From an uncultured archaeon (GTDB lineage: Archaea > Iainarchaeota > Iainarchaeia > Iainarchaeales > DATDZZ01), in NCBI GenBank assembly GCA_964373795.1, contig CAYJVY010000004.1, forward strand, positions 60,001 to 92,000: DNA of 32,000 nt, in the 5' to 3' direction. The translations under genes were made by a program, and so were the position numbers. The notes under the pieces were generated by a model. It ran no database searches, was not told the DNA's origin, and saw only the letters and a list, made by a program, of their open reading frames with translations. Positions 2,207 through 17,532 of this stretch are shown here, piece after piece; the stretch's first letter is position 1, and every line of letters starts with the position of its first letter.

Positions 2207-3878
2207 TAATCCAATTTCCTTGTTGAAATAATTTTTTGCCACACTTATTTTCTTCAATTTCATTATTTAGGTTAGTTAAAAAATTATTTTCATCAAATTC
2301 CTGCAAAATATTGTTTGAATTAAAGAAAACTATTCTATTCACTTTTTGATTATAAAGAAATTCACAAGAGCCAGAAGGAAACCCATCAAAAGAAAAAAAA
2401 TCCAGAATAAATGTATTCTCTAAGCCCAATAAAATCGGATTATATACGTTAGCAAAAAAAACTTTAGAAGAAAAATTATTTGGAATAAATTCATGTAATG
2501 CTTTAACGTAAGAATTTGAGTAAATTGACTCCGAGTTATTTAACAAATCAATTGCATTAGGAGAAATTACTATAACTGAATAAAAAAGTCCTAAAACAAA
2601 AACCAGTTTAGCTATATTTGAATATACGGTTTTTTCAAAAATAATTGAAGAAAAATATTTTCCCGCTAAAACACAAATCAATGCATATAAAGGCAAAAAA
2701 TATCGATAAGTAGATCCAAAAACAAATTCATTCACTTTGCCAAAACTTAAAATAATGAAAAAAATACTTATAAAAAAGGCTAAAAAAAGCGCATTCTTTC
2801 TTAAGTTTTTTGAAAAAAAAGCTAAAATGAAAAAAACAATTACAGGAATAAAATACAAACTTGTAAAAGCAATTAACAACTTATTTAAAACAATAAAAAA
2901 TAAATTAATCAATGGAGCCGATTGCGAAGGAATGCTTGAATATTTGGAATATAACCAAAGCAATGAACTTATTTTTGAAATAAAAAAGAATGAAGAAAAA
3001 ACAACAACTAAAGAAAAATACATCAATACCTCTTTGAGTTTCTTTGATTTAAGTAAAACAAAAACCAACAGAATTAGCAAAAAAACTAATCCAATAAATT
3101 TAGTTAAAATCATTGAAACTGCAAAAAAAACACTTAAAACAAAAAATGCTCTTTGTTGTTTTCTAAAATAAAGTTGAATAAAGTAGAAACTAATCAAAAA
3201 ATTCATTGTCAAAAATAAATCTGAAAGAAAACTATGTGATAAAAAGAAAACTGCCGAAGACAATCCAAAAAAAATCGAGGCAAACCAGTTATTTTTTTTA
3301 TCCTCAAGATTAGTTAATAAATAAATAATAAACAAAGTAAAAAGAAAAATAAATGCAGGAATTGACTTCCACATGAAAATGGAAAACATTCTAGTTAAGC
3401 CAGTAATTGATTCAAATAGTAATGGATATGTGTTTGCAATTACCTTAAATCCATTTAATTGCTCTTGATAGAAAGGCATTTTTCCATTTATGGAAAACTC
3501 ATTTATTAAAGGCAAGTGATAAGAAAGAGAATCAAAATGTAAATCTAAAGAAAAAAACAAAATAAATATTGAAAGAAAAAATAAAATAAAAATAAATATA
3601 ATAAAAGGATTTAAAAAAAACCGGAAATTAATTGAAAAAACATGTTTTAAGTTATTGAAATTTAATAAAAACAAAATCAAAAAAATTAAAGAAACAAAGT
3701 AAATAATAAAAATATTTATTGGAAGAAAAAAAGAAGTAAAATAAAAAATCAATCCAATTAAAGAAATTGAAACTGGAAAACACAAAACCACTATTTCCTT
3801 TTTTTCTAATTTTAAATAATTTAATAATATGATTCCTGGAATGAAAAAGAGTAAGATAAACAGAATTAATTCAACCAT
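2178..3878 (-). CDS. Large polytopic membrane protein with C-terminal soluble domain; possibly a GT-C-type glycosyltransferase (weak)
   Basis: 566 aa with more than 10 predicted hydrophobic helices followed by a soluble domain of about 130 aa. This resembles the PMT/ArnT-like layout. No WWDxG (AglB) motif seen. Confidence 0.5.
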   Translation of the reverse strand: MVELILFILLFFIPGIILLNYLKLEKKEIVVLCFPVSISLIGLIFYFTSFFLPINIFIIYFVSLIFLILFLLNFNNLKHVFSINFRFFLNPFIIFIFILFFLSIFILFFSLDLHFDSLSYHLPLINEFSINGKMPFYQEQLNGFKVIANTYPLLFESITGLTRMFSIFMWKSIPAFIFLFTLFIIYLLTNLEDKKNNWFASIFFGLSSAVFFLSHSFLSDLFLTMNFLISFYFIQLYFRKQQRAFFVLSVFFAVSMILTKFIGLVFLLILLVFVLLKSKKLKEVLMYFSLVVVFSSFFFISKISSLLWLYSKYSSIPSQSAPLINLFFIVLNKLLIAFTSLYFIPVIVFFILAFFSKNLRKNALFLAFFISIFFIILSFGKVNEFVFGSTYRYFLPLYALICVLAGKYFSSIIFEKTVYSNIAKLVFVLGLFYSVIVISPNAIDLLNNSESIYSNSYVKALHEFIPNNFSSKVFFANVYNPILLGLENTFILDFFSFDGFPSGSCEFLYNQKVNRIVFFNSNNILQEFDENNFLTNLNNEIEENKCGKKLFQQGNWIIILELSSST

Positions 3879-3908: not shown

Positions 3909-5102
3909 TTAATTTGTTAAGTAAAACACTAACACTGGAAAAATTAAAAAAGCCATTAAATGAGTTCTTCTAATTCCATTGCTTATAGGAATTAAGCCAA
4001 TAAAAGTTGAAATAACTAATACAATTAATCCAATCAAATTAGTTAAAAAAGTTGCAAGCATTAAAACAAAAATTAATGAAAATAAATTCAATTGAAAATA
4101 ATTAATTTGTTCAATTAATTTAATTGCTTTAAAAGAAATCAAGTAAACTAAAATAGTTGAAAACCCAATTGCAAAAATAATTGTAAACAAAATAAATAAA
4201 ACATCTAAGTCATTTAATTGAAGAAGACTTTTTACCGCTAAAGCAGCTCCTGTCCTTGTCTTCCCAATAAAATACAATGAAAAAAATCCAAAAATGGCAT
4301 TAACAGTATTAATGCCTCCTAAAATAATTAAATAGTGGGAACGACTTATTTGTTTAAAAAATTGTTGCACTAAAAAACTTGCTTCACTTGGCCCTATTCC
4401 TGGAAAAATCGAAACAATTAATCCTGCAATTGAACTAATAAGAGTACATAAAAAAATAACTTTTCCATTATATGAATCATAGCTAAAAACTTGTTTTTTA
4501 ATAAAAGTTTTTTTAGTTAAACTATATAAAAGATTACTTAAACCAAAAAAACCAGTTATCACAACAAATAAACCATTTTGAACTTCAATTAAATTCCTTA
4601 AAACAATTATTCCTAAAAAAGAGGCTAAAAAAATTACGATTAACGAAATTAATTTTTTCTTATTATCTTCTTCAGAAAAAACCATTAAGAAAAGAGTTAA
4701 ACCTAAAACAACTGGAATTAAAAACTTGAAAAAAGAAAAAAATTTAATTAAAAATAATCCATAAAATGGAATTAAAAAAATTGAGAACACTCCTGCAAAC
4801 AAACCTCCCAAAGCAGTTAATTTAATTGCATACAATCCTCTTCCTTTCAAGAAATAGTGATGTCCTGGAAGAATTGATAAAAAAGTATCATCTGAAGGCG
4901 CACCTAATAAAATGCTTGGAATAAAGTCAAGAAAAGAATGAGTTACACTTAAAGCTACAATAAATAAGACTAAATGCAAATTATTTTCAGAAGCAAAAAG
5001 TAAAACCAAAAGAGAAATAGTATTAACATGAATTCCTGGAAGCAAACCTGTAAAAATTCCTGCAATGCATCCTAAAAAAATCCATGAAAGCAATTCAATC
5101 AT
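3909..5102 (-). CDS. DUF112 / TctA-like integral membrane permease
   Basis: 397 aa. The N-terminal GIFTGLLPGIHVNT and LLGAPSDDTFLSILPGHHYFLKGRG blocks resemble the TctA/DUF112 family. Its start overlaps the stop of the upstream OB-fold gene by 8 nt. Confidence 0.6.
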   Translation of the reverse strand: MIELLSWIFLGCIAGIFTGLLPGIHVNTISLLVLLFASENNLHLVLFIVALSVTHSFLDFIPSILLGAPSDDTFLSILPGHHYFLKGRGLYAIKLTALGGLFAGVFSIFLIPFYGLFLIKFFSFFKFLIPVVLGLTLFLMVFSEEDNKKKLISLIVIFLASFLGIIVLRNLIEVQNGLFVVITGFFGLSNLLYSLTKKTFIKKQVFSYDSYNGKVIFLCTLISSIAGLIVSIFPGIGPSEASFLVQQFFKQISRSHYLIILGGINTVNAIFGFFSLYFIGKTRTGAALAVKSLLQLNDLDVLFILFTIIFAIGFSTILVYLISFKAIKLIEQINYFQLNLFSLIFVLMLATFLTNLIGLIVLVISTFIGLIPISNGIRRTHLMAFLIFPVLVFYLTN

Positions 5103-5469
5103 TTAATTTCACTTCATTTGCAGTTAACTGAATCTCTCCTTTAAATAAATCAATTTTTCCAGTAACAGTTACAAATGGCTTGAGCTTAATTAGTTGAATT
5201 TGTTCTTGAGTCGGATTAAATATAACTACATTTAGTTTTCCCAAATTAAATAAATCAAAAACAATTAGTTTTTCTTTAAATGAATATGAAACAATTTTTC
5301 CTTGAATTCTAACATTCTCTCCAACATTATGTTTTCCTAAATCTTTAATCAAATAATCTTTTGGTTGAGTAAAAAAATAAAGTAATACAATTAAAATTAG
5401 TCCAATAAATGAAATGCCCAACGCGATTCTAGAAATTAATAAATCATTTAATTCCATAAAAGAATTCAA
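5095..5469 (-). CDS. Membrane-anchored OB-fold (tRNA_anti-like nucleic-acid-binding fold) protein
   Basis: 124 aa. One N-terminal TM helix (IALGISFIGLILIVLLYFF) precedes VRIQGKIVSYSFKEKLIVFDLFNLGKLNVVIF...VTVTGKIDLFKGEIQLTANEVKL, a typical OB-fold beta-barrel pattern. Confidence 0.55.
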   Translation of the reverse strand: MNSFMELNDLLISRIALGISFIGLILIVLLYFFTQPKDYLIKDLGKHNVGENVRIQGKIVSYSFKEKLIVFDLFNLGKLNVVIFNPTQEQIQLIKLKPFVTVTGKIDLFKGEIQLTANEVKLND

Positions 5470-5547
5470 AAAAAATAGAGTTAAAATACTTCACAAAAGT
5501 TAGTTGAATGACGAAAGAAAAATAACACTAAAACGACAAGTGCAAGG

Positions 5548-6111
5548 TTATTCAATTACTTTTTCGGGTTTTCTTGAGAAAATAGATTGATTTAATGCGA
5601 CTTTCACTTTTTCCCCTAGTTTAAATTTTTTATTTGACGCAACTATGTATTTGCCTGCAGGCAAAAAAGAACCAAAATCAAAGGAAGTTTGAATTACAGT
5701 TGTATTTTTATCTGAAACTAATACTTTTCCATAAACAAAGTTTTTTCGAAATAAAAAGTAATAAAAAAATATGAATAAAATAAATACAATTATCCAAGCA
5801 ACGATAAAATTTGATTTAAAGAATAAATCTGAAGAAAAATTAATTAAAAAAGTTATTTGAACCGAAACAAGTAAACCAATAAAGAAAACAATTGCTTGAA
5901 TTTTTTCTTCTTTCAACTCATTTTTTAATGCAAAGAAAAGTAAAACTAAATAAATCAGTGAAAATAAAATTTGAGTTAAAATTAGTGATCCTTGAAAGAA
6001 ATAATCTGCAAACCCGTTTAATAAAATTGCAATTAAGATAATTTGAAGTTTTAAAACTAGGAAGGCTTTGTCATCGAAATCTGTAAAATATTTTTTGAAA
6101 AGTTCTTTCAA
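5548..6111 (-). CDS. Membrane protein (4-5 TM) with small soluble C-terminal beta domain, unknown function
   Basis: 187 aa ORF, hydrophobic core, same strand as and immediately downstream of the pilin-like genes. Confidence 0.5.
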   Translation of the reverse strand: MKELFKKYFTDFDDKAFLVLKLQIILIAILLNGFADYFFQGSLILTQILFSLIYLVLLFFALKNELKEEKIQAIVFFIGLLVSVQITFLINFSSDLFFKSNFIVAWIIVFILFIFFYYFLFRKNFVYGKVLVSDKNTTVIQTSFDFGSFLPAGKYIVASNKKFKLGEKVKVALNQSIFSRKPEKVIE

Positions 6112-6126
6112 TTAAATCACTTCAAA

Positions 6127-6504
6127 TTAAACGATTTTAATTGTTACGCTGCCATATTTTGATGAATTAGCAATTTCTGAAGATAAGTCGTTTACAATTT
6201 TGGATTTCAGTATTGAAACTTCAGGATTAGAAGAAAAATCAGTGGGAACAAAATAAAGATTTAAAACCAAATTTGATTTAGTTGTAGAAGAATCGATTTC
6301 CGCTTTTTTTAAAATATATAATTCATTTGATTCACTTAAAATTCCTGTAACCTTTGTTTTAACTTTTGCTAAAATAAAAGTGTCTTCATTAACATTAACC
6401 CATAAAGAAATTACAATCAAAGATACAATCATTATAAAGGCAGTAGCTAAAAGTAATTCAAAACTTGCTTGTCCTTTTACATTCCATTTAAACTTCTTCA
6501 ACAT
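6127..6504 (-). CDS. Class III signal-peptide (type IV pilin-like) protein
   Basis: The track start at 6519 is GTG; the ATG at 6504 gives MLKKFKWNVKG|QASFELLLATAFIMIVSLIV. This has a K-G|Q prepilin cleavage site, Glu at +5 and a hydrophobic helix. Confidence 0.7.
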   Translation of the reverse strand: MLKKFKWNVKGQASFELLLATAFIMIVSLIVISLWVNVNEDTFILAKVKTKVTGILSESNELYILKKAEIDSSTTKSNLVLNLYFVPTDFSSNPEVSILKSKIVNDLSSEIANSSKYGSVTIKIV

Positions 6505-7003
6505 GGGTTGTAGCTCCACTTTTTCTAATCTTTAATTTAACTAGTTTTCCATTTTCAGGAGAAGTGGAAATTTCTGTTGAACTACCACTTAATTTACTGC
6601 AGTCAAGTGAAGTGGCATTAACTGTTTTCATTTTTTTAGTGCATTTTGAATCAGATGAATCTCCATCTTGAGCACAAAAAGTTCCCTGAGCAGGAGAATT
6701 TAAATTTAATTCAAAACTAATTTCTCTACTAGAGGTACATTTAAGCAAAGAATTTGCTGGAAGAAACAATCGTATTTCTTGCTCGGAATTGCTTGGGGAA
6801 AGAGAAATAAAATCAATTGAGTTAACTAGTTTTTCTAAAGAACTATTAATTTGTCCAAGCCTTGAAACATCATCTGTATGCTTGAAGGCATCGCCTAAAA
6901 CTGGTTGAACAACTGTTTGAATATACACTAACATTACAACTAAAATTAAAATAAATTCAATTGAAATTTGGCCTTTTACATTCTTAAAAAAACTATATTC
7001 CAT
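6488..7003 (-). CDS. Class III signal-peptide (type IV pilin-like) protein with four Cys; candidate minor pilin or adhesin
   Basis: MEYSFFKNVKG|QISIEFILILVVMLVYI matches the QxSxExxxL class III signature. The C-terminal domain has 4 Cys (LKCTS, FCAQ, SKCTK, LDCSK). Confidence 0.7.
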   Translation of the reverse strand: MEYSFFKNVKGQISIEFILILVVMLVYIQTVVQPVLGDAFKHTDDVSRLGQINSSLEKLVNSIDFISLSPSNSEQEIRLFLPANSLLKCTSSREISFELNLNSPAQGTFCAQDGDSSDSKCTKKMKTVNATSLDCSKLSGSSTEISTSPENGKLVKLKIRKSGATTHVEEV

Positions 7004-8184
7004 AAAAGATCTCCAATTAAACTTAAAGCAATAAATGCAATCAAGATTGCTGGTGCAAAAGGCACACTTAATTTAATAGTAATTTCATTTTTTAATCTTT
7101 TGTTTTTCACTAATTTTTTTAATTCTGAAAGTTGTTCAAAAGTTATTCCTGCAGCACTTTTAGAGTCAGCTAAAACCTTTCCAGAAGGGTTGAAATGATT
7201 CACTAAAGCTTTAATATTTCCTTTCAATGCAATGGAAAAAATTTCTCCAAAATTCAATGGATTCAAAACAAATGGCTTGTTTTTTCTTAAAACAATTGAT
7301 TCAACTGAAATATCCCCTTCCTTTAAATCAGTTATTTTAATTTTCTTTTGCAAAACTTTTCTACTAAGTGAAAAAAACTTAATTAAAGTAATTAAAGCAG
7401 TGAATAACAAAAATAATGAAAACGCATTAAACAAAAATTCAGGTAAAACAGTAATTCCTTGAATTAGCACTGTTGCAATGAAGACAAGTAAAACTAAAAG
7501 TAATTGCAATGTTCGCGGAAGCTTGCTGATTAAAAAAAGTAAAATTAATGCAATTAAAAATTCAAATAAAAAAACAAATTGAGTGAAAAACAATTTGAAA
7601 TTAATTAATGAATTCACAAAATTAATTCCTTTAAATAAAATAATTAATTCAATTAATTGAATTAATCGCTTCAATGCATTTGAATAAAAGTCTTTCATTA
7701 ATTCTTTTTGCAAATCTTTTCTTTGAATAAAACCAATTAAAGTAATTCCAAATCCATAAGGAAAAACTGCAAATAAGCTAAAGAAAAACAGTGAAACAAA
7801 AAATAAAGGAAAATTTATTACTGAAAACAATTTTTCATTCAAGTTAAGCATGCTGCCCAGAAAAAAATAATTAACTGGATTTAAGGCAGTTAAAGCAGAA
7901 AAAAGTTTTACATCTCCTCCAGCCCACACTCCGATTTTCCAAAAAAACCATGCAAAAACAAAAGCAGAAATTAAAGCAATCAATGAATTAAATAAAAAAG
8001 AAAAATTGTTTTGCATGATAGAAAAAATTAAATGAAGAAAAATTCCTGCAATTGCTAAAGAATAAGTTAACTTGTTTGGAACAATTCTTTCCTTTAAATC
8101 AGTATAAGTTGCTATAAGCAAACCTGCAACCGAAACTAAAAAAATAATTCCTGAAAATAATAAAGTCATTAAAAAAAAGAGCAA
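6976..8184 (-). CDS. Prepilin/preflagellin peptidase, A24 family (PibD/EppA-like), with a large insertion
   Basis: 402 aa. First catalytic Asp lies in ATYTD(29)LKERIVPN and the second in WAGGD(91)VKLF (GxGD-type). The C-terminal LSVPFAPAILIA resembles the PilD-family terminal PFGP motif. Confidence 0.8.
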   Translation of the reverse strand: MLFFLMTLLFSGIIFLVSVAGLLIATYTDLKERIVPNKLTYSLAIAGIFLHLIFSIMQNNFSFLFNSLIALISAFVFAWFFWKIGVWAGGDVKLFSALTALNPVNYFFLGSMLNLNEKLFSVINFPLFFVSLFFFSLFAVFPYGFGITLIGFIQRKDLQKELMKDFYSNALKRLIQLIELIILFKGINFVNSLINFKLFFTQFVFLFEFLIALILLFLISKLPRTLQLLLVLLVFIATVLIQGITVLPEFLFNAFSLFLLFTALITLIKFFSLSRKVLQKKIKITDLKEGDISVESIVLRKNKPFVLNPLNFGEIFSIALKGNIKALVNHFNPSGKVLADSKSAAGITFEQLSELKKLVKNKRLKNEITIKLSVPFAPAILIAFIALSLIGDLLWNIVFLRM

Positions 8185-8262
8185 AGTGCATTTTTTAACT
8201 AAATGCTTTAAAAAAATGTTTTCATATCGGAATTCAGTATTACTAAATGAGGAGGAAATAAA

Positions 8263-8451
8263 ATGAAAAAATTAATTATATTATTAGTTTTAGTTTCTTT
8301 TCTATTTGCCGGATGTGTTTACACTGATCAACCATACTATAACACGGCAAACAATGTTGAAGACACTCCATTAACACATACAAGTATAGATAATGAAATC
8401 AGTGATGAAGCCAGTGATGAAATAAAAAATGAGGCTTTAACAGAACCTTAA
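8263..8451 (+). CDS. Small acidic putative lipoprotein
   Basis: MKKLIILLVLVSFLFAG|C is a signal peptide plus lipobox-like L-F-A-G-C. A GAGGAGG Shine-Dalgarno sits 6-12 nt upstream. The mature part is D/E-rich. Confidence 0.55.
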   Translation: MKKLIILLVLVSFLFAGCVYTDQPYYNTANNVEDTPLTHTSIDNEISDEASDEIKNEALTEP

Positions 8452-8469
8452 TTCATGAATTAAATAAGG

Positions 8470-8476
8470 TTTTTTT
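8470..8476 (+). terminator. Oligo-T tract between convergent genes (candidate archaeal terminator)
   Basis: A T7 run lies 19 nt after the lipoprotein stop, in the 23-nt gap before the convergent pilin gene. Confidence 0.3.
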
Positions 8477-8648
8477 AGTTTCCTAAAAAAGCTGAAATTG
8501 CTTTTAACCTGAAATCAAATATTTTTCCTTGAGCTGCGGCAGCTATATCTCTTATTTGCAAGGCAAGAGTTGCAGCAATTAAAGCCAAAACAATGCTAAA
8601 TAAAACAGTTAACAAGTATTCTATTGAAACCTGGGCTTTTTCATCCAT
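8475..8648 (-). CDS. Mini type IV pilin (class III signal peptide), 57 aa
   Basis: Not in the ORF track. My translation: MDEKA|QVSIEYLLTVLFSIVLALIAATLALQIRDIAAAAQGKIFDFRLKAISAFLGN. Confidence 0.75.
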   Translation of the reverse strand: MDEKAQVSIEYLLTVLFSIVLALIAATLALQIRDIAAAAQGKIFDFRLKAISAFLGN

Positions 8649-8666
8649 ATAAAATTCTCTTTAAAA

Positions 8667-8843
8667 TTATTTAATATTTAAAGTATTGAAAAGAGTATTA
8701 GTTGCAGAGGAAACCTTGTTCTTAGCTGGCTGAGTTGAATTAAATAAAACAAATGCCACTACTGCTGCAACAAGAATTGCTCCACCTAAAAGTAATAAAT
8801 ACTCTAAAGAACCTTGAGCTTTTTCAGTTAATTGAAAATCCAT
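8667..8843 (-). CDS. Mini type IV pilin (class III signal peptide), 58 aa
   Basis: Not in the ORF track. My translation: MDFQLTEKA|QGSLEYLLLLGGAILVAAVVAFVLFNSTQPAKNKVSSATNTLFNTLNIK. Confidence 0.75.
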   Translation of the reverse strand: MDFQLTEKAQGSLEYLLLLGGAILVAAVVAFVLFNSTQPAKNKVSSATNTLFNTLNIK

Positions 8844-8847
8844 TTAA

Positions 8848-9039
8848 TCACTTTACTTTGTTTACTGCTTTTTCAATATTGCTTAAAACATCTCCGTGAA
8901 CAGTTTCTCCTTCTTTTACAACGTTTTTCGCAGAACCGCTTTGAAGTAAAATTATTGCAAGAACTGCTGCAGCTACCAAAACTGCTCCCCCAATTAAAAG
9001 CAAATATTCAACAGATGATTGAGCTTTTTCTTCCAACAT
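8848..9039 (-). CDS. Mini type IV pilin (class III signal peptide), 63 aa
   Basis: MLEEKA|QSSVEYLLLIGGAVLVAAAVLAIILL is an exact QxSxExxxL class III motif. Confidence 0.8.
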   Translation of the reverse strand: MLEEKAQSSVEYLLLIGGAVLVAAAVLAIILLQSGSAKNVVKEGETVHGDVLSNIEKAVNKVK

Positions 9040-9052
9040 TTAATCCCTTAAT

Positions 9053-9232
9053 CTACTTAATCAAGTGTTTTATTTCACCTGCTGAATTTGCAAGTGAATG
9101 TCTTCCAGTTTCAACATTATTTTTAGCTTGATTAGAGAAAGTGAAAAGGAAAGTCATTACAATTGCCGCAATTAATACTGCTCCACCAATTAAAAGCAAA
9201 TATTCTAAGGCTGTTTGAGCTTTTTCATCCAT
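9053..9232 (-). CDS. Mini type IV pilin (class III signal peptide), 59 aa; candidate major pilin
   Basis: Not in the ORF track. My translation: MDEKA|QTALEYLLLIGGAVLIAAIVMTFLFTFSNQAKNNVETGRHSLANSAGEIKHLIK. It is preceded by a GGAGGT Shine-Dalgarno and two TATA-like boxes. Confidence 0.75.
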   Translation of the reverse strand: MDEKAQTALEYLLLIGGAVLIAAIVMTFLFTFSNQAKNNVETGRHSLANSAGEIKHLIK

Positions 9233-9273
9233 TGATTAAACCTCCATATTGATGCAAATACTTTGAACTTCAA

Positions 9274-9307
9274 ATATATTTAAAATATTTCAACCTATAT
9301 TTAAAGG
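9274..9307 (-). promoter_or_regulatory. Two TATA-box-like elements upstream of the four-gene pilin run
   Basis: Minus-strand reading gives CCTTTAAATATAG and ATATTTTAAATATAT, about 45-75 nt upstream of the ATG at 9232. This is the only sizeable spacer (97 bp) inside the pilus locus. Confidence 0.45.
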
Positions 9308-9329
9308 TATCTTGTAAATAAACTAAATT

Positions 9330-9512
9330 TTATCCAATGTTTTGAATTCCGCTTGTTACATTTGAAACCTGATTTGATAACTTGTTTTCAATTGCGCCTT
9401 TAGGCAAGTTCTTTAAAAACAATCCAATTAATGAAGCAATTAAAATTGCGGCTGCAACTAATAACAATGCTTCTAAATTAACTTGAGCTTTAAATTCTTT
9501 AAACAAATTCAT
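9330..9512 (-). CDS. Mini type IV pilin (class III signal peptide), 60 aa
   Basis: MNLFKEFKA|QVNLEALLLVAAAILIASLIGLFL has a K-A|Q site and Glu at +5. It abuts the platform gene stop with a 0-nt gap. Confidence 0.75.
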   Translation of the reverse strand: MNLFKEFKAQVNLEALLLVAAAILIASLIGLFLKNLPKGAIENKLSNQVSNVTSGIQNIG

Positions 9513-10472
9513 TTACCCACCTATTAACATTAAAGTTGAGCCAATAATTGAAGCATAAAATACAAGAAAAGCTATAAACAATAAAACTGGAAAATATAAA
9601 ACACTTTTATTTATTTTTCCTTTCCTCATTAAAGCAATCATTATGCTTGTAGCAAAAATTGAAACAAATATATAAAACTGTAAAAGCAATACAATGAAAA
9701 ACCTTGCATTTTCAGCTGCGTTTTTTGCAGCAGTGGAAACAACTCCAGTTGAAATAGATGACTGAATCAAGAATTGAATTATTGTTGAAACAATTCCAAA
9801 AATAAATGGAGCAATTAATGCTCCTGCAACAAAAATGAATAATGTTTGCATTAAGGTTCTAGCTCTTCTCTCTGCATCAACTCTTTTAGCTTCTCTTACA
9901 TCTCCTGAAATGCTTTCCAGTACATCTGCTAATCCTCCTCCAGACTTAACTGAATCAATAATAATTGTAACAGTTCTATCAACTAGTCTTGAATTCACGT
10001 TTTCTGAAAGAGTTTTCATTGAGTTCTCAAAATTTTCTCCTTCCCTTAACTTATCTAAAACCTTGTTTAATTCAATTGAAAGCAATCCATAATTTGATTC
10101 AGCTATTTCTTGAAATCCTGCTTCATAAGTACTTCCTGTTTTCAAAGTATCAGATAATTGTTTTAAAGCAGGAGCCAAGTTTTCTTCTATTTCATCAATT
10201 CTTTTTTGCTCTTTGTAAACAGGAAATCCAATAAACAAGTCAAGTAATACAGCAAACACTACTAAAGGTGAAACAATTTCAGCAAAAAGCAATACATCTT
10301 TTAAAATACTTGGAACAGTAATTGAAAAAACCTTGAACGAAATTCCTACTCCAAAAGCAATTGCAAGAGAAAGAATAACTGCTATTAAAAAATATAAGAT
10401 TACTGGCAAGCCAATTCTTAAATTATTTAAACTTCTTTGATAATTAAATAAAAAACTTTTATGTACACTCAT
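9513..10472 (-). CDS. Type IV filament platform protein, half-size T2SSF domain (TadC/EpdK-like)
   Basis: 319 aa. A cytoplasmic T2SSF-like block (LAPALKQLSDTLKTGSTYEAGFQEIAE...SVKSGGGLADVLESISGDV) is flanked by TM helices. Confidence 0.8.
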   Translation of the reverse strand: MSVHKSFLFNYQRSLNNLRIGLPVILYFLIAVILSLAIAFGVGISFKVFSITVPSILKDVLLFAEIVSPLVVFAVLLDLFIGFPVYKEQKRIDEIEENLAPALKQLSDTLKTGSTYEAGFQEIAESNYGLLSIELNKVLDKLREGENFENSMKTLSENVNSRLVDRTVTIIIDSVKSGGGLADVLESISGDVREAKRVDAERRARTLMQTLFIFVAGALIAPFIFGIVSTIIQFLIQSSISTGVVSTAAKNAAENARFFIVLLLQFYIFVSIFATSIMIALMRKGKINKSVLYFPVLLFIAFLVFYASIIGSTLMLIGG

Positions 10473-10477
10473 TTAAA

Positions 10478-11647
10478 TCAAACCCTTGGCTGTGAAGCAA
10501 ACAAAAAATACGTTAAATACGCTAACACTAAAGGCATTATTATAACGTAAAAGATAATTAAATTTGTTACCCCTAAAGGCAGTCCAGTAAAAATGCTTGT
10601 TCCTTGCAATCCTAGAGGAGCATTTCTAATTGCTCCTAAAACAGCTACAAATACGGGTAAGACAATTGCAACAAAAATAAATATTACTCCAAAGAAATTC
10701 ATTTTTTCAGAAAATTCTCGCATTTTTAAAATCAAGTTATGAGACACTTCTTCTGCTACATCCTCCATTGTATCTGAAAGATTTCCTCCTGTTTTCATTG
10801 CTCTTACAACATGATTTAAGGCTTCTCTTAAAGCATTAGACTTTGTTCTGTTTCCAAGTTTTTTTAAAGCAGTTTTTTCTTCAGTTCCTTCTTCTATTTC
10901 ATTTAAGGTTCTAGCAAATTCTTCAGATAAAGCTCCGTAATCAGATACAGCAATTGTTTGAAGAGTTTTATTCAAGCCAATTCCTGCTCTTAACTCTGTT
11001 GCAATATGCCTTAAAGCAAAAGGCAATTCAACATCTAATGCATCAGCTCTTTTTTTTGCAACACTTGAAGGAACAATTAATAAAACTAAAATCATTAAAA
11101 AGAATAAAACAATGCTAACTATTAAAGACATAGTAACAGTATTTGCTAATGCAACGTTAACTAAAAAAACTCCTGCTAAAACTAATAGAAAAAAAATCAT
11201 TAAAGAAAAAATAAAAGAAGAAACAACTGTTACCCCTAAATATTGAATAACTGTGAAATGCATGAAAGCACTATCTAAATCGCTTTCTAAAAACCTTAAA
11301 GGAGAAGAAAATAATGGAAACGCTTTAATAAAATTAATCAATAAGTCAAACAATCCTTTAAAGCTTTCATAAACTTTTGCAATAAATTTTAAAAAAAAAT
11401 CTTTTGATTGAAGTAAATGCTCCATTGAAGGCCCTTTAAATCCTGGTTTAACTCCTTCAACCCAGTCCCTTAAATCTCCGTGCTCTTCTCTTGAAACTTT
11501 TTTTCCACTTAGTTCTTCTTTTCTTTTAACTCTTTCAGTAATTTTTTCCGCTAACTCTTTATCAAAAGAAGGCGCTAAAACGTTTTTAGATTTTTCTTCA
11601 ATTTTTTTCCTCAAACTAGCTATTCTGCTTTCTTTTGCTTCAGGCAT
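10478..11647 (-). CDS. Type IV filament platform protein, half-size T2SSF domain (TadB/EpdJ-like)
   Basis: 389 aa. T2SSF-like block: LPFALRHIATELRAGIGLNKTLQTIAV...AMKTGGNLSDTMEDVAEEV, with TM helices on both sides. Confidence 0.8.
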   Translation of the reverse strand: MPEAKESRIASLRKKIEEKSKNVLAPSFDKELAEKITERVKRKEELSGKKVSREEHGDLRDWVEGVKPGFKGPSMEHLLQSKDFFLKFIAKVYESFKGLFDLLINFIKAFPLFSSPLRFLESDLDSAFMHFTVIQYLGVTVVSSFIFSLMIFFLLVLAGVFLVNVALANTVTMSLIVSIVLFFLMILVLLIVPSSVAKKRADALDVELPFALRHIATELRAGIGLNKTLQTIAVSDYGALSEEFARTLNEIEEGTEEKTALKKLGNRTKSNALREALNHVVRAMKTGGNLSDTMEDVAEEVSHNLILKMREFSEKMNFFGVIFIFVAIVLPVFVAVLGAIRNAPLGLQGTSIFTGLPLGVTNLIIFYVIIMPLVLAYLTYFLFASQPRV

Positions 11648-11688
11648 TTAATTTCCTCTAATTCCTTCAAATTAAATGATTTAAATGT

Positions 11689-13374
11689 TTAAATTTGTTT
11701 CTTCTCAAACAAAAACCGTTGAGTCTCTCTTACTACTTCATCAATTGACCTAATTCCTTTATCAACTAATGCTTGCAAAAATTTTTCTCTATCACTTAAA
11801 TCTTCTTTAATATCTTTTTTACTCAAACCACTTAATAATTCTATTTCTTTCAAGTACTTGCTTTGAACATCTGTTGCTTCCAAAGAATCTTTTACTGCAT
11901 TCCTTGAAAAAATTGTTTGCACTTGAATCTTTCCCTCTAAAACCCCTGAAACCTCTGCAATTTCAGTTACTCTTCTAATGCTTCCTTTTTTTCTGTCATG
12001 CAATCTATGCTGAATCAAAATCAAGTCAAGAGATGAAAGCATTAATTCAGGAACATTCATTGGAGGATTTGTAACTCTAACAATTGTTTCCTGAGGAGAA
12101 TTTGAATGAATTGTTCCAAGGCTTCCGTTATGCCCTGTATTCATTGCAGTAAACAAAGTAAAAGCCTCTGAATGCCTTACTTCTCCTACAACAATTCTAT
12201 CAGGCCTCATTCTCAAAGAATTCTTAGTTAAAATATCCATTGTAAGCTCTCCTTTTCCTTCCAATCCAGGAGGCTTTGCTTCTAATCTAATCCAATGACT
12301 TAAAGGAATATTTAATTCAGCTGTATCCTCAATTGAAACAATTCTTTCATTTGAAGGAATAAGCGAAGCCAACACATTTAAAGTAGTTGTTTTTCCAGAA
12401 CCAGTTCCTCCAGCAATTAAAGAATTTGAAGGCTTTACTCCAAAGCCATCAACTGAAAGCCATAAAAAAGCTGCAACTTCAACTGAAATAGTTCCATAAT
12501 TAATTAAATCAATTAAACTAAAAGGATCGTCTCTAAACTTTCTAATAGTTAAAGTCGAACCACTAACAGAAGCAGGAGGAATGGTTGCATTAACTCTAGA
12601 ACCATCAGGCAATCTAGCGTCAAGCAATGGATTTGAAATATCAACTCTTCTTCCAACTCCTCTTGCAATCTTGTTAATTAAATCTTGCACTTCAGTATCA
12701 GAGTAAAACTCAATATTGGTTAACATCATTTCATATTCTCTGTGAAAAACGTATACAGGAGTTTTAGGTCCAATAATCATTATTTCCTCTAATTTATTGT
12801 CTCGAATTAATTCATCAATTAAACCATATCCAACCATTTCTCTTACAACTGCATCAGCATAAAAAGGAAACTTTGATTCAGGAATATTCAATTCCTCTGC
12901 TTCTCTTAAAATGTCTAAAATTTTTTGAAAATAAACATTTCTCTTTTCTTCAGGATCCCTAATTTTATAAGGCTCTATTGCAATCAACCTAGTTGCCACT
13001 TCTTTAATAGTATTAATAATTGTTTTCTCAGTCAAATTCGGGCGAGGAACTGGAACATTATAGACAAGTAAATCCTGTCCTTCAACTTGAAAAATTTCAA
13101 CATTTCCATAAGCAGCAATCTTTGTTTTCTTTGAAGAAACCAAATCACTTTGAATTGAAGCAGTTTTAATTTTTGGAACTGAAACCTCTTCAATTTCTTT
13201 CACTTCTTCAACTGAATCAGTTTTTAAAGAAATTTTTGCAGATTCTTCAACAATTGGTTTTGGTTCTAAAACCTTTTTTTCTTCAGGTTTTTCTTTTACT
13301 GCAAAAAAGCCTTGAGAATACTTTAATTTTTTCTCCTTCTTTAATTTTTTAAACATTTCACTAAAAGAACTCAT
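11689..13374 (-). CDS. Type II/IV secretion-family assembly ATPase (FlaI/TadA/VirB11 superfamily)
   Basis: 561 aa. Walker A AGGTGSGKTTTLN, Asp box IVSIEDTAELN, Walker B RPDRIVVGEVR and His box TGHNGSLGTIHSNS. Has a K/E-rich N-terminal extension of about 90 aa. Confidence 0.9.
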   Translation of the reverse strand: MSSFSEMFKKLKKEKKLKYSQGFFAVKEKPEEKKVLEPKPIVEESAKISLKTDSVEEVKEIEEVSVPKIKTASIQSDLVSSKKTKIAAYGNVEIFQVEGQDLLVYNVPVPRPNLTEKTIINTIKEVATRLIAIEPYKIRDPEEKRNVYFQKILDILREAEELNIPESKFPFYADAVVREMVGYGLIDELIRDNKLEEIMIIGPKTPVYVFHREYEMMLTNIEFYSDTEVQDLINKIARGVGRRVDISNPLLDARLPDGSRVNATIPPASVSGSTLTIRKFRDDPFSLIDLINYGTISVEVAAFLWLSVDGFGVKPSNSLIAGGTGSGKTTTLNVLASLIPSNERIVSIEDTAELNIPLSHWIRLEAKPPGLEGKGELTMDILTKNSLRMRPDRIVVGEVRHSEAFTLFTAMNTGHNGSLGTIHSNSPQETIVRVTNPPMNVPELMLSSLDLILIQHRLHDRKKGSIRRVTEIAEVSGVLEGKIQVQTIFSRNAVKDSLEATDVQSKYLKEIELLSGLSKKDIKEDLSDREKFLQALVDKGIRSIDEVVRETQRFLFEKKQI

Positions 13375-13493: not shown

Positions 13494-14276
13494 ATGAAGC
13501 CAACTGAAAGAATTCAAAGAGTGCATGCCAAAATTCCTTGGGTTCCAAAAGAAGCCTTAAAAGAATTAAATGAAGAAACTCGTGGAAAAATTATTGCACG
13601 AATTTGGCAAGCAAGAATCCCTCAACCAGTAAAAGAATGGCTTAATAGATTTGCTTTACGAAAACACGCAACCCCGTTTGAAGTTAATACTTACCTCAGA
13701 GAATTTCAAAGAATTTTTTCAAACCCACTCCTCTTTGAAGTAACTCCTTTAGATAAATTCCTGCGAAGAGCAAGAATGAGGCCTAGAATGACTCTTCAAA
13801 CATTTCTTAAAAGAAATAAAAAGGTTTCAATGCTATCAATTGCAAAAAAAATTTCAACAGTAAAATTAACTTCGACAAGAATTGCAGAAGAAATTAAAAG
13901 AATTAAAGCAGATAAAGATTTTTTCGGCGAAGAAAAAAAGCCAAACCAAAGATTTTCAGAAGAAGAAAAAAGACAAGTAATTAATGAAATACAAAGAAGA
14001 GCTCAAAAAATTTCTTTAAGACAAATTTACTTCATTGAATTATTTTTTACAATGCCTAAAACTCAAAGCTTTCAAAAAAATGTTAGACCAATGACTTCAC
14101 AACAAAGAGAACGACAATTAAGAGAAGTAGAAGAATATCAAATGTTTACTCCAGAAGAAAAAACAGCAATCAAGGTAGAAATAATGAAACGCCCTTGGCT
14201 TTCAGAATTTGATGCTCATAGAATAATTCATTACTTTATTGGAATGAATCTAATTAAAAAACACGGAATGCAGTAA
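13494..14276 (+). CDS. Basic (K/R-rich) protein of unknown function
   Basis: 260 aa ORF with no recognisable motif. It diverges from the pilus ATPase across a 119-bp AT-rich spacer. Confidence 0.5.
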   Translation: MKPTERIQRVHAKIPWVPKEALKELNEETRGKIIARIWQARIPQPVKEWLNRFALRKHATPFEVNTYLREFQRIFSNPLLFEVTPLDKFLRRARMRPRMTLQTFLKRNKKVSMLSIAKKISTVKLTSTRIAEEIKRIKADKDFFGEEKKPNQRFSEEEKRQVINEIQRRAQKISLRQIYFIELFFTMPKTQSFQKNVRPMTSQQRERQLREVEEYQMFTPEEKTAIKVEIMKRPWLSEFDAHRIIHYFIGMNLIKKHGMQ

Positions 14277-16939: not shown

Positions 16940-17227
16940 GTGAAAGACTGGATAAAAACAATCCTGAATGCATTCAACAGGAATACAATATTTATTCATT
17001 TTAGCTTCCACATAGAGTTAAAAAATCTTACACGAAATCTTGACCTTGACAATGTATTCAAAACCGTTAGAAAAGGAAAAGTACTTGAAGCAAAATCAAT
17101 ATATCCTGACAGAATTGCCTTTTATCACTTTTTCAAAGAAGGATTTACATATGTTGCAATTGTGAAGATTTATCCAAACTCTTTCAAAGTAATCACTGCA
17201 TGGAAAAATAAAGGAAGAAAGATATGA
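16940..17227 (+). CDS. DUF4258-like putative toxin
   Basis: 95 aa. FSFHIELKNLTRNLDLDNVFKTVRKGKV plus the C-terminal FKVITAW resemble the DUF4258 pattern (H-A-x-x-R...I, ending V-I-T-x-Y/W). It overlaps the next gene by 4 nt (ATGA). Confidence 0.45.
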   Translation: MKDWIKTILNAFNRNTIFIHFSFHIELKNLTRNLDLDNVFKTVRKGKVLEAKSIYPDRIAFYHFFKEGFTYVAIVKIYPNSFKVITAWKNKGRKI

Positions 17228-17532
17228 AAAAAATAAGATGCCCTTGCGGAGGCGTGTTTGAAGAAAAAAAAGTAAAGACTGAAGGATTTTTAGTTGATGG
17301 ACTAAAATGCAACATGTGTGGGGAGATTACTTTTTCCTTACAACAATTCAAAAAAGTTTTCAGGTTTAGACAGTTAGCAAAAGAAATTGACTCAACAAAA
17401 AAAATTGTTCAAATTGGAAACTCAATTGGCTTAATTCTTCCAAAAGGAATAGAAAAACTTGGACTCAAAGTTGGCGATAAAGTAAAACTAAAACTGGAAA
17501 ACAAGAAAAAGATGGAACTAATTTTAGAGTAA
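17224..17532 (+). CDS. Putative antitoxin: N-terminal Cys4 zinc ribbon fused to C-terminal AbrB/SpoVT domain
   Basis: CPCGG...x...CNMCGE is a MqsA/YgiT-like zinc ribbon. VQIGNSIGLILPKGIEKLGLKVGDKVKLKL is an AbrB/SpoVT swapped-hairpin motif. Confidence 0.6.
   Translation: MKKIRCPCGGVFEEKKVKTEGFLVDGLKCNMCGEITFSLQQFKKVFRFRQLAKEIDSTKKIVQIGNSIGLILPKGIEKLGLKVGDKVKLKLENKKKMELILE

Follow-up and report, generated by a model that had tools for sequence, protein, structure and literature searches.

Results

Genes of the locus

The window analyzed here is a 32,000-nucleotide stretch of archaeal DNA. An earlier note had described a type IV filament locus on its minus strand at 6127-13374, and a check of the ORFs of the window found eleven at these coordinates, all on the minus strand, whose Pfam domains and pilin motifs agree with that description. 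The features are as follows (↓, cleavage site).

6127-13374, minus strand: pilus gene block (ATPase, two platform genes, five mini-pilins, A24 peptidase, two larger pilin-like proteins)
11689..13374, minus strand: assembly ATPase, 561 aa, CpaF/TadA/EpdL-like T2SSE member (Pfam T2SSE, 1.8e-46)
10478..11647, minus strand: platform protein 1, 389 aa (one Pfam T2SSF domain, 1.1e-18)
9513..10472, minus strand: platform protein 2, 319 aa (one Pfam T2SSF domain, 4.2e-17)
9330..9512, minus strand: mini-pilin 1, 60 aa, KA↓QVNLE (motif scan; weak Class_IIIsignal match, E=0.029)
9053..9232, minus strand: mini-pilin 2, 59 aa, KA↓QTALEY (motif scan; Class_IIIsignal, 2.6e-07, above cut-off)
8848..9039, minus strand: mini-pilin 3, 63 aa, KA↓QSSVEY (motif scan; Class_IIIsignal, 4.3e-4)
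8667..8843, minus strand: mini-pilin 4, 58 aa, KA↓QGSLEY (motif scan; Class_IIIsignal, 9.4e-08, above cut-off)
8475..8648, minus strand: mini-pilin 5, 57 aa, KA↓QVSIEY (motif scan)
6976..8184, minus strand: prepilin peptidase, 402 aa (Pfam Peptidase_A24, 1e-13, and Arc_PepC, 6e-13)
6488..7003, minus strand: minor pilin, 171 aa, KG↓QISIEF (motif scan)
6127..6519, minus strand: minor pilin, 130 aa, KG↓QASFE (motif scan)
5548..6111, minus strand: DUF2101 membrane protein, 187 aa, four TM helices (Pfam DUF2101, 6.9e-08)
5095..5469, minus strand: single-TM OB-fold protein, 124 aa (TM helix 15-33)
3909..5102, minus strand: TctA-like membrane protein, 397 aa (Pfam TctA, 1.4e-44)

The last three genes form a conserved tail (3909-6111) that was overlooked when the locus was taken to start at 6127; the conserved co-directional block reaches past this position, down to 3909. 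The gene order of the whole block is kept in ∼36 related Iainarchaeota-like genomes. The genomes nearest to the window are those of Iainarchaeota/Diapherotrites, and the host of the locus is an Iainarchaeota-like DPANN archaeon with a small genome. A plus-strand ORF with a lipobox (62 aa, 8263-8451) breaks the block between the last mini-pilin gene and the peptidase gene.

The assembly ATPase

The Walker A motif (GGTGSGKT), Asp/Glu box, and His box of the ATPase are all intact. When the protein was compared with solved structures, CpaF was the best match (254 bits), followed by AfGspE (239 bits) and FlaI (215 bits), and CpaF outscored FlaI although its alignment was shorter. The ATPase core is 65% identical to a Thermococcus protein, 55% identical to a Methanocaldococcus protein, 46-50% identical to bacterial CpaF, and about 40% identical to FlaI, AfGspE, and haloarchaeal PilB. 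The earlier note had proposed a phylogeny of the ATPase as a check, and in a neighbor-joining tree, the only kind built, the protein does not cluster with archaellum FlaI but falls outside the FlaI/AfGspE/haloarchaeal PilB clade (80% bootstrap for the split). This tree leaves the order within the CpaF/Epd-like superclade unresolved; the bacterial CpaF sequences cluster apart from the clade of the window ATPase, a grouping that carries no bootstrap value. In these comparisons, the ATPase groups with the Thermococcus and Methanocaldococcus proteins and bacterial CpaF/TadA, not with FlaI.

Among NCBIfam models, the top match by total bits was the FlaI equivalog (300 bits, cut-off 550), with TadA at 233 bits (cut-off 373) and BasE a weaker match at 183 bits. 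The best matches in a plasmid database were all bacterial CpaF proteins, 39-43% identical to the ATPase. Many homologues are labeled “flagellar protein FlaI” by JGI, and NCBI names them “CpaF family protein.” The block had been said to encode every core part of an archaeal type IV filament; this holds for the ATPase, platform, pilins, and peptidase, but no second ATPase (FleN/MinD/TadZ or FlaH-like) of the kind present in described Epd and Tad loci was found among the window ORFs.

The platform is encoded by two genes

As the earlier note had reported, the two half-size platform genes are separate and each encodes one T2SSF domain. Platform protein 1, which has a charged cytoplasmic N-terminal extension, aligns by hhalign to residues 36-300 of haloarchaeal PilC (679-701 aa), and platform protein 2 aligns to residues 457-695. 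By this alignment, the proteins are equivalents of the N-terminal and C-terminal halves, respectively, of the two-domain PilC/FlaJ.

The gap between the two ORFs is only 5 nt, as might be expected if a sequencing frameshift or a recent pseudogenizing mutation had split a single gene. This explanation is exceedingly improbable and is refuted by comparison with related and distant archaea. The platform 1-type ORF (355-427 aa) is separate in 37 related loci and the platform 2-type ORF (285-380 aa) in 36, with no fused platform gene among these 36-37 independent assemblies. A two-gene platform is also found in Thermococcus, Methanocaldococcus, an unclassified archaeon (L053), and Marine Group II, and the order and sizes of the ATPase, platform 1, and platform 2 genes are common to Methanocaldococcus lauensis (523/343/299 aa) and a Thermococcus-like contig (669/350/304 aa). 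In addition, each half has its best match in the orthologue at the corresponding position: platform protein 1 is most similar to the product of the first Thermococcus platform gene (E=2.5e-37; second, 4e-18), platform protein 2 to that of the second (1.6e-36; first, 1.7e-19), and the best matches in Methanocaldococcus follow the same order. Similarity to TadB/TadC is only weak, whereas the archaeal counterparts are positionally orthologous. These relationships mark the platform as truly encoded by two genes, an arrangement that is ancestral.

Pilins and their predicted peptidase

When all six frames of the window were scanned for M-x(1-24)-[KR][GA]Q-x3-E followed by a hydrophobic stretch, exactly seven ORFs were returned, the five mini-pilins and two larger class III signal-peptide proteins previously proposed, and none elsewhere in the window. 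All seven have the motif [K][A/G]↓Q-x3-E, with Q+1 and E+5, which is the EppA substrate signature described in M. maripaludis (PMC4371748). Pfam Class_IIIsignal matches four of the five mini-pilins and the 171-aa protein, and two of these matches pass the Pfam cut-off.

The gene for mini-pilin 1 abuts platform gene 2. Mini-pilin 5 is of a conserved type that is the final pilin ahead of the peptidase gene in 24 related loci, with full-length orthologues of 30-58% identity, and an AlphaFold2 model predicts a single helix (residues 2-56, pLDDT 85). The 171-aa minor pilin is modeled (pLDDT 86) with a helix (6-68) and a β domain in the classic pilin shape, and this model had no match among PDB folds with E<0.2; in the family alignment, Q+1 and E+5 are invariant and four Cys residues nearly so. 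For the 130-aa ORF, the ATG at 6504 is the likelier start, which would give a 125-aa protein; the counterparts of this protein in relatives are divergent (102-125 aa), with the same motif and position. The mini-pilin N termini resemble the Flp motif, with E+5/Y+6 in four of five, and the 171-aa protein has E+5/F+6, as in TadE. Neither the Flp_Fap nor the TadE model of Pfam gives a match, and the hhalign probability against Flp is only 18%.

The A24 prepilin peptidase that the earlier note assigned to the block has the expected Pfam domain and both catalytic Asp residues; this pair (D29 and the GGD91 motif) is kept in 24 family members. Its architecture, an A24 aspartyl protease core followed by an archaeal C-terminal domain, is EppA-like. 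The best NCBIfam model is EppA (residues 13-387 aligned to 4-328 of 334; 56 bits, cut-off 450). Because the EppA and TadA scores are well under their cut-offs, these matches fall short of establishing orthology to the two named proteins.

The DUF2101/OB-fold/TctA-like tail

The DUF2101 protein is a probable accessory component. Its gene is at the same position in six related genome loci and some metagenome contigs, and in a Hydrothermarchaeota contig (L134) a DUF2101 gene lies directly upstream of a stand-alone T2SSE ATPase gene. The OB-fold gene overlaps the TctA-like gene by 8 nt in the window (4-8 nt in the window and relatives), and intergenic gaps are 43-78 nt. In every related locus examined, an ORF with a TM helix and an OB-like domain directly adjoins TctA, as it does, by a crude test, in 29 of 69 metagenome TctA loci. 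Of the 20 related loci that extend far enough, 18 have the OB-fold/TctA-like pair downstream of the pilus genes, and the TctA-like gene is so placed in further metagenome contigs. No TctB/TctC partners were found among the window ORFs.

Discussion

Identity and assembly of the pilus

Short pilins and one T2SSF domain per platform gene define the Epd-like and Tad clade (PMC6668835), and the locus has both. The block very probably encodes the complete assembly system of an EppA-dependent (Epd)-like type IV pilus, the archaeal pilus related to the Tad/Flp pilus of bacteria; the ATPase affinities, split platform, short pilins, and EppA-type motifs all bear out the Epd/Tad-like filament originally proposed. 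On these features, the pilus is a further member of the known Epd-like/Tad-related family and not a new kind. The split platform had been presented as the Epd/Tad architecture, and it does match that of Epd-like/Tad kin, but it is not exclusive to them, as many clade 2 euryarchaeal loci have two tadC-like genes (Makarova 2016).

With the Epd pilus of Methanococcus maripaludis (Makarova clade 1; Denise “Epd-like”), the locus shares one ATPase and two adjacent single-T2SSF genes (EpdL, EpdJ/K), short pilins with Q+1/E+5, a dedicated large EppA-type peptidase, and several minor pilins; gene order and positional orthology are common to the window and the Methanocaldococcus/Thermococcus modules. 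In contrast to the one compact co-directional block of the window, Methanococcus has the pilins/eppA, epdJKL, major pilin, and OB/TctA pair at separate loci. The window also lacks the DUF2341 adhesins of the Epd system, its mini-pilins are 57-63 rather than about 70 aa, and the EppA model matches its peptidase at the low score given above.

The gene content, motifs, family placement, conservation, and predicted folds are results of the analysis, and from them we infer prepilin processing, filament assembly, and the identity of the major pilin. All seven prepilins, the five of 57-63 aa and the pair of about 125-171 aa, would be inserted into the membrane and cut after [K][A/G] by the EppA-like 402-aa A24 aspartyl peptidase, leaving Gln at +1 and Glu at +5. 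A CpaF-like hexameric ATPase would then drive the platform of two half-size T2SSF proteins (N-half and C-half), which would extract the mature, essentially all-helical mini-pilins from the lipid bilayer and add them to a thin filament. The likeliest role of the two larger pilins, which carry a globular β domain, is to prime assembly or to form the tip.

Other readings of the core genes seem far less probable. That the locus is an archaellum, intact or degenerate, might be suggested by the top NCBIfam score of the ATPase and the JGI label of its homologues, but the FlaI score is far under the equivalog cut-off, CpaF is the better structural match, the tree separates the ATPase from FlaI, and the platform is split, unlike the two-domain FlaJ. 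Neither the window nor the conserved flanking regions of relatives yielded FlaH, FlaF/G, FlaC-E/X, or archaellin-sized subunits. These observations contradict a motility organelle, which the earlier note had also rejected, and leave it a negligible chance. A bacterial Tad system recently acquired by horizontal transfer is most unlikely. The locus does share with the Tad/Flp (type IVc) pilus, for example Caulobacter CpaF-CpaG/H-PilA, an ATPase whose closest solved structure is CpaF, a TadB/TadC-like split platform of similar sizes, and Flp-sized pilins with E+5/Y+6 (four of five) beside larger pilin-like proteins, and the plasmid-database matches and NCBI naming also point to CpaF. Against this, the ATPase is nearer the Thermococcus and Methanocaldococcus proteins than any bacterial CpaF, and the bacterial sequences form their own group (without bootstrap); the platform halves have archaeal orthologues; the peptidase is of the archaeal A24 plus Arc_PepC type, with a C-terminal domain unlike Tad; the cleavage site reads [K][A/G]↓Q instead of G↓A/V; the TadA score is below its cut-off and the Flp and TadE models fail to match; and secretin, TadZ, RcpC/CpaB, and TadD, present in Tad systems, are absent from the window. 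Finally, T2SS and the Sulfolobus Bas system build pseudopili from the same core parts, and BasE is a weaker match to the ATPase, so that a short pseudopilus for protein secretion or surface binding-protein assembly (bindosome/T2SS-like) might be considered instead of a long filament. This is very unlikely, as the locus contains neither substrate-binding proteins with class III signals nor secretion substrates, and five tandem Flp-sized pilins with Epd/Tad affinities suit filament-forming systems.

Adhesion and possible DNA uptake

As a whole, the locus is likely best explained by an Epd-like pilus that serves in adhesion, with possible DNA capture. In M. maripaludis, transformation depends on eppA and the epd genes as well as on a single-TM OB-fold protein with its TctA-like neighbor (PMC10133366). 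The window shares with the transformation set of M. maripaludis JJ (Fonseca et al. 2023, PMC10133366) the Epd-type genes and an OB-fold protein directly upstream of a TctA-like protein without TctB/C, and its OB-fold protein has an architecture like that described for MMJJ_13020. By analogy, the TctA-like protein is a candidate DNA transporter, after MMJJ_13030, and the OB-fold protein its candidate DNA-binding partner. The surface filament would act in adhesion and may also capture DNA and deliver it to the downstream co-directional pair, as in Methanococcus. Unlike in M. maripaludis JJ, the corresponding genes form a single cluster in the window, and homologues of the MinD-like ATPase, thermonuclease, and ArtE of the JJ set were not seen in the window.

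The alternative is a pilus for adhesion or host attachment only, with the DUF2101/OB/TctA genes being unrelated transport genes held by conserved gene order, and we give it little short of an even chance. Attachment to surfaces is a role of both the M. maripaludis Epd pilus and the Tad pili of bacteria (PMC6668835; PMC4371748), and no pilus genes were found near TctA relatives outside this clade, nor TctA within 10 kb of the compact Epd-like locus L053. Because flanking housekeeping genes are syntenic as well, with ThrRS upstream in 23 of 28 loci and JAB downstream in 19, the conserved order possibly reflects lineage inertia, and the linkage of the pilus genes to OB/TctA is suggestive only. 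On the other hand, the locus has no large adhesin-like protein (e.g. DUF2341/PilY-like), the OB/TctA genes run in the same direction as the minor pilin genes and at close spacing to them, and it is just this pair that Methanococcus uses together with its Epd pilus. Host attachment by the filament is speculation, and none of the papers and computational tools consulted shows Iainarchaeota to depend on a host. The tail beside the pilus genes makes DNA uptake at least as plausible as host attachment; coupling through the OB-fold/TctA-like pair is a tentative proposal that we hold at somewhat less than even. If so, the pilus may take up DNA besides sticking to surfaces.

In excerpts of the report on “dark matter” islands with type IV pilus genes in DPANN archaea (Makarova, Wolf & Koonin 2019, PMC6393860, Fig. 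2A), EppA-type motifs, the mini-pilin set, and the OB/TctA tail, all features of the window, are without mention. The islands shown there share with the window a secretion ATPase and TadB/TadC-like genes, and their many signal-peptide proteins are predicted to be divergent pilins.

The pilus locus and its relatives

All eleven of the closely packed minus-strand ORFs that the earlier note had listed at 6127-13374 are present, and a Pfam search of this block recovered T2SSE, two T2SSF ORFs, Peptidase_A24, and Class_IIIsignal.

Genes of the pilus block with their Pfam matches
11689-13374, minus strand: ATPase, 561 aa; T2SSE (1.8e-46)
10478-11647, minus strand: platform 1, 389 aa; single T2SSF domain (1.1e-18)
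9513-10472, minus strand: platform 2, 319 aa; single T2SSF domain (4.2e-17)
6976-8184, minus strand: peptidase, 402 aa; Peptidase_A24 (1e-13) plus Arc_PepC
Small proteins and 171-aa protein: Class_IIIsignal on most

The Walker A, Walker B, and His box motifs of the ATPase are intact as read from the sequence, and both catalytic Asp residues of the A24 peptidase are conserved. With a T2SSE ATPase, a T2SSF platform, class III pilins, and an A24 peptidase, the locus belongs to the type IV filament superfamily. The window is AT-rich (G+C 22-37%) and archaeal in character; by Pfam it also encodes an archaeal-type ThrRS with the archaea-specific editing domain, Nre, the RFC small subunit, and a topoisomerase. 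tRNA and Rfam scans of the whole window found nothing.

By scanning one genome per species we identified 42 related loci. Over the best-matching segment, the ATPases of these loci share 54-74% identity with the window ATPase, and most of the loci come from MAGs of the DPANN lineage that bears the name Candidatus Iainarchaeum/Diapherotrites. As established by tblastn and ORF analysis, the order ThrRS - ATPase - platform 1 - platform 2 - two to five mini-pilins - peptidase - 171-aa pilin - (125-aa pilin) - (DUF2101) - OB-fold - TctA-like is conserved wherever contigs reach far enough.

The platform is encoded by two genes

The gene for the N-terminal half of the platform precedes that for the C-terminal half: in profile comparisons, platform 1 maps to the N-terminal and platform 2 to the C-terminal half of the 679-701-aa single-gene haloarchaeal PilC. 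A sequencing frameshift, which the earlier note had named as an alternative source of the two ORFs, is refuted by the relatives, where platform-1-type (355-427 aa) and platform-2-type (285-380 aa) ORFs are separate in 36-37 independent assemblies and fused in none. The half-to-half mapping and the consistently separate ORFs fit the scenario of Denise et al. 2019, in which gene fission gave rise to two one-domain platform genes (PMC6668835).

Downstream of each of the nearest labelled ATPases, from Thermococcus and Methanocaldococcus, lie two single-T2SSF genes arranged as in the window (350 and 304 aa after the Thermococcus-like ATPase, 343 and 299 aa in Methanocaldococcus lauensis). Each platform half of the window is much more similar to the gene in its own position than to the other one; platform 1, for example, matches the first Thermococcus gene at 2.5e-37 and the second at 4e-18. 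This positional orthology indicates that the fission is common by descent. Comparisons assigning the two halves to TadB or TadC were ambiguous.

Pilins and prepilin peptidase

All six frames of the window were scanned for M-x(1-24)-[KR][GA]Q-x3-E followed by a hydrophobic stretch. Its matches are limited to seven ORFs, five mini-pilins of 57-63 aa and two larger proteins (171 aa at 6488-7003, and a 130-aa ORF at 6127-6519 that is more likely 125 aa long from the ATG at 6504), a result far beyond chance that establishes the locus as real. Gln at +1 and Glu at +5 are present in all seven. EppA is a much larger peptidase whose substrates carry Gln +1 and Glu +5 (PMC4371748). In the window, the peptidase has EppA as its best NCBIfam model, aligned end to end but scoring 56 bits where the cut-off is 450, and its architecture (402 aa, A24 plus Arc_PepC) fits a putative EppA-like enzyme.

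The mini-pilins, close in size to the short pilins of about 60-75 aa in Epd-like (clade 1) pili, would be ∼50 residues long when mature, and ORFs of this size number 67 in the 42 related loci. In 24 loci, the mini-pilin encoded immediately ahead of the peptidase gene is conserved from end to end, and the remaining mini-pilins differ among loci both in how many there are and in how long they are. One mini-pilin was predicted as a single helix (pLDDT 85) like Flp pilins, and the N-termini resemble the Flp processing region, whose motif is G|xxxxEY (Glu +5 in five of five, Tyr +6 in four of five). Neither Flp_Fap nor TadE of Pfam matched the mini-pilins or larger pilins at E ≤ 1, and hhalign of 72 mini-pilins against three Flp sequences gave a probability of 18%, so we claim resemblance to Flp and not homology.

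The 171-aa pilin has Glu +5 followed by Phe +6, and in its family alignment Gln +1 and Glu +5 are invariant and four Cys nearly so. A single-sequence homologue search returned only the query itself, and a profile search was required. Its predicted structure (pLDDT 86) has the classic pilin shape, in which an N-terminal helix of 60 residues packs against a beta domain. A Foldseek search of this model against the PDB gave no match with E < 0.2, and the pilin assignment is therefore based on topology and motif.

Placement of the ATPase

The solved structures closest to the ATPase are CpaF, the Tad motor (254 bits), archaeal AfGspE (239 bits), and FlaI (215 bits). Its best matches in a plasmid database are all bacterial CpaF (39-43% identity), and a control query with AfGspE preferred haloarchaeal ATPases; NCBI names its homologues "CpaF family." Homologues were drawn from 1.84 billion cluster representatives, with tree labels taken from cluster look-ups, and a neighbor-joining tree was built on the core region with labelled references. 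In this tree, FlaI, AfGspE, haloarchaeal PilB, and their relatives split from all other ATPases with 80% bootstrap support, and the window ATPase sits outside that clade. The other group holds the window, bacterial CpaF, Thermococcus, Methanocaldococcus, Marine Group II, and other DPANN ATPases, with branching inside it not settled by neighbor joining.

Core identity of the window ATPase to labelled references
Thermococcus: 65%
Methanocaldococcus: 55%
Bacterial CpaF: 46-50%
FlaI, AfGspE, haloarchaeal PilB: about 40%

On the neighbor-joining tree and these identities, the ATPase falls in the Epd-like and Tad clade and not in the archaellum, Halo, or Aap/Ups clades. The Thermococcus and Methanocaldococcus lineages belong to clade 1 of Makarova, the Epd-like group of Denise, which is defined by two one-domain platform genes and short pilins (PMC6668835).

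An archaellum fails every criterion tested: the ATPase scores 300 bits with the FlaI model against a cut-off of 550, the platform is split, unlike the two-domain FlaJ, and FlaH, FlaF/G, and archaellins have no above-threshold matches in the window, in agreement with the earlier note's claim that this is not an archaellum. That a bacterial Tad system was imported recently is disfavored by the ATPase identities, the tree, the peptidase type, and the platform orthology. With the TadA model TIGR03819 the ATPase scores 233 bits (cut-off 373), and Pfam found no secretin RcpA/CpaC, TadZ, RcpC/CpaB, or TadD in the window. We also rejected a specially close relation of Iainarchaeota to bacterial CpaF, as a "Tad donor," since identity to CpaF is slightly higher for the Thermococcus protein (50-54%) than for the window ATPase (46-50%). 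A second ATPase (FleN/MinD of arCOG00589, TadZ, or FlaH-like) was not found by Pfam among the scanned window ORFs of at least 90 aa, a set that takes in nearly all non-overlapped ORFs of this size, and a Pfam search of the window found no large adhesin. A second ATPase is usual in Epd and Tad systems, though in archaeal genomes it is often encoded elsewhere (Makarova 2016; PMC6668835), as may also be the case here.

Taken together, domains, pilin motifs, ATPase tree, and platform orthology support the classification proposed from sequence, an adhesion-type filament of the Epd/Tad-like kind whose platform is genuinely split. A role in host attachment is unsupported speculation. Taken as a pilus, the locus is ordinary: split-platform, short-pilin Epd-like systems and their relation to Tad have been published (Makarova 2016; Denise 2019; PMC6668835), and DPANN pilus islands with TadB/TadC-like genes appear at least in a figure of Makarova 2019 (PMC6393860). 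What makes it valuable is that all its genes sit together in an unusually compact arrangement, which is useful for modelling a minimal Epd/Tad core.

A conserved tail of OB-fold and TctA-like genes

The earlier note ended the block at 6127. Closely spaced genes in the same direction continue past that boundary.

Genes of the tail with their Pfam matches
5548-6111, minus strand: DUF2101 membrane protein
5095-5469, minus strand: OB-fold protein, 124 aa; PF01336 (4.2e-06), TM helix at 15-33
3909-5102, minus strand: TctA-family protein; TctA (1.4e-44), overlapping the OB-fold gene by 8 nt

No NCBIfam family was assigned to any of these three proteins, and no TctB or TctC partners were found for the TctA-like protein, for which hydropathy is too crude to separate 11 from 12 TM helices. 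We consider this conserved OB-fold/TctA tail more interesting than the pilus locus and a worthwhile lead toward archaeal DNA uptake. In a transposon screen of M. maripaludis JJ, natural transformation depended on epdA/C/F, eppA, and epdJ/K/L, as well as on a MinD-like ATPase and on two genes lying side by side (PMC10133366). The TctA-like protein of that organism was proposed as a DNA transporter, and a homologue is also essential in Methanoculleus (PMC10133366). By description, the window resembles this gene pair (MMJJ_13020/13030) in having a gene for a single-TM OB-fold protein beside one for a TctA-like protein without TctB or TctC.

In 18 of the 20 loci that extend far enough, the OB-fold/TctA pair lies downstream of the pilus genes. 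The gap from the last minor pilin gene to the OB-fold gene is 43-71 nt in loci without DUF2101, and the OB-fold and TctA genes overlap by 4-8 nt. Several relatives have a class III operon 0.4-2 kb past TctA, so that the pair is flanked on both sides by pilin genes. General synteny could also explain this linkage, as the neighborhood is conserved beyond the pilus genes: of 28 loci, 23 have ThrRS upstream, and in 19 loci TctA is directly followed by a gene with a JAB domain. A metagenome scan from the TctA side (80 loci) found pilus context in five more contigs, with a full block in L055, L059, and L061 and a partial one in L054 and L123, plus pilus-gene fragments in L058 and L132, the TctA identities in pilus context running from 37% to 52%. 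The other 73 TctA loci (30-43% identity) had no pilus context and no Q+1 pilin genes nearby. Pilus context is thus kept only by the closest TctA relatives. Outside the Iainarchaeota-like clade, TctA relatives have no nearby pilus genes, and a compact Epd-like locus of another archaeon (L053) has no TctA within 10 kb; both observations weigh against the linkage. Coupling of the pilus and the OB-fold/TctA tail in DNA uptake, drawn by analogy with M. maripaludis, is therefore offered as a tentative possibility.

Under such coupling, the 9.5-kb block at 3909-13374 may be a single-locus archaeal competence machine of pilus, OB-fold receptor, and TctA-like channel, a reading that we put somewhat short of an even chance. 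The Epd-like pilus would capture DNA, the membrane-anchored OB-fold protein would serve as DNA receptor in the manner of ComEA, and the TctA-like protein would form the DNA channel as an analogue of ComEC. To our knowledge archaea lack ComEC, and for this reason the carrier of DNA across the archaeal membrane is still in question. If the competence reading is true, one locus joins modules that are scattered in Methanococcus and provides independent comparative evidence that the DNA transporter long sought in archaea is the TctA-like protein. The occurrence of pilus, OB-fold, and TctA-like genes as one travelling block supports the TctA hypothesis and points to DNA uptake in some DPANN archaea. 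Under the competence reading, Iainarchaeota-type DPANN would have natural competence and may use it to scavenge DNA as a source of nucleotides or genes, much like CPR bacteria, whose competence depends on a pilus plus ComEC. In the literature searched, TctA and archaeal pili occur together only in the Methanococcus transformation study and its preprint, with no link to DPANN made there.

Additional features of the window and related loci

In most relatives a gene for a Prok-JAB (JAMM/MPN) protein abuts the end of TctA (0-30 nt). In the window (121 aa, 543-908, minus strand) and in one relative, L004, it is displaced by a gene for a 566-aa PMT_2/GT-C-like membrane protein (window 2178-3878), which could be a candidate for pilin glycosylation; the window also carries a 412-aa plus-strand ORF at 968-2206. 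These two genes take the place after TctA where relatives have the second class III operon, which the window lacks. That operon is co-directional, lies 0.4-2 kb beyond TctA/JAB, and encodes three or four overlapping class III proteins, roughly 90-170 aa long apart from one at 355 aa, with KGQ and RGF motifs.

Second class III operon in related loci
L001: 20181-21396
L007: 20156-21365
L009: 14749-15816
L015: 18654-20272
L018: 19007-21264

Three further plus-strand features lie within or near the pilus block. A 62-aa ORF at 8263-8451, with an acidic tail and a lipoprotein-type signal (MKKLIILLVLVSFLFAGC), occupies the 290 nt that separate the last mini-pilin gene from the peptidase gene. It has no counterpart in the related loci inspected, where this gap is a few bases. 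A 260-aa Lys/Arg-rich ORF without a Pfam or NCBIfam match (13494-14276) lies between the ATPase and ThrRS genes and looks like a genome-specific insertion, as the relatives inspected have no room for it. Just past ThrRS, at 16940-17532, is a probable toxin-antitoxin pair, DUF4258 then MazE/AbrB-like, with a 4-nt overlap.

In many relatives (L029, L030, L031, L032, L034, L036, L037, L038, L040, and L042; proteins P0009, P0080, P0108, P0109, and P0117), 0.5-1.5 kb of additional coding sequence breaks up the ATPase gene, near window residue 419 in the His box (GHNGS|LGT) or, in L040, at residue 355. Several interrupted ATPases (748-823 aa) carry Pfam Intein_splicing, which indicates that inteins are frequent in this family and possibly occupy more than one site; the window ATPase has none.

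A paralogous stand-alone CpaF-like ATPase of 524 aa is encoded in an Iainarchaeum/Diapherotrites contig (L135, 3134-4708; P0172 cluster) and has neither platform nor pilin genes within 10 kb of it. It recalls the orphan VirB11-like ATPase of M. maripaludis, which has been discussed as a possible retraction motor. In a Hydrothermarchaeota contig (L134, CAYFZR010000041.1, 569-2936), DUF2101 lies directly upstream of a stand-alone T2SSE ATPase with platform genes not nearby, a second, independent association that hints that DUF2101 belongs to such T2SSE machines. In Methanocaldococcus lauensis (L050, 5679-7943), a TFIIB homologue that itself bears an intein lies directly upstream of the EpdL-like ATPase, matching the observation of Makarova that TFIIB paralogues accompany archaeal pilus loci.
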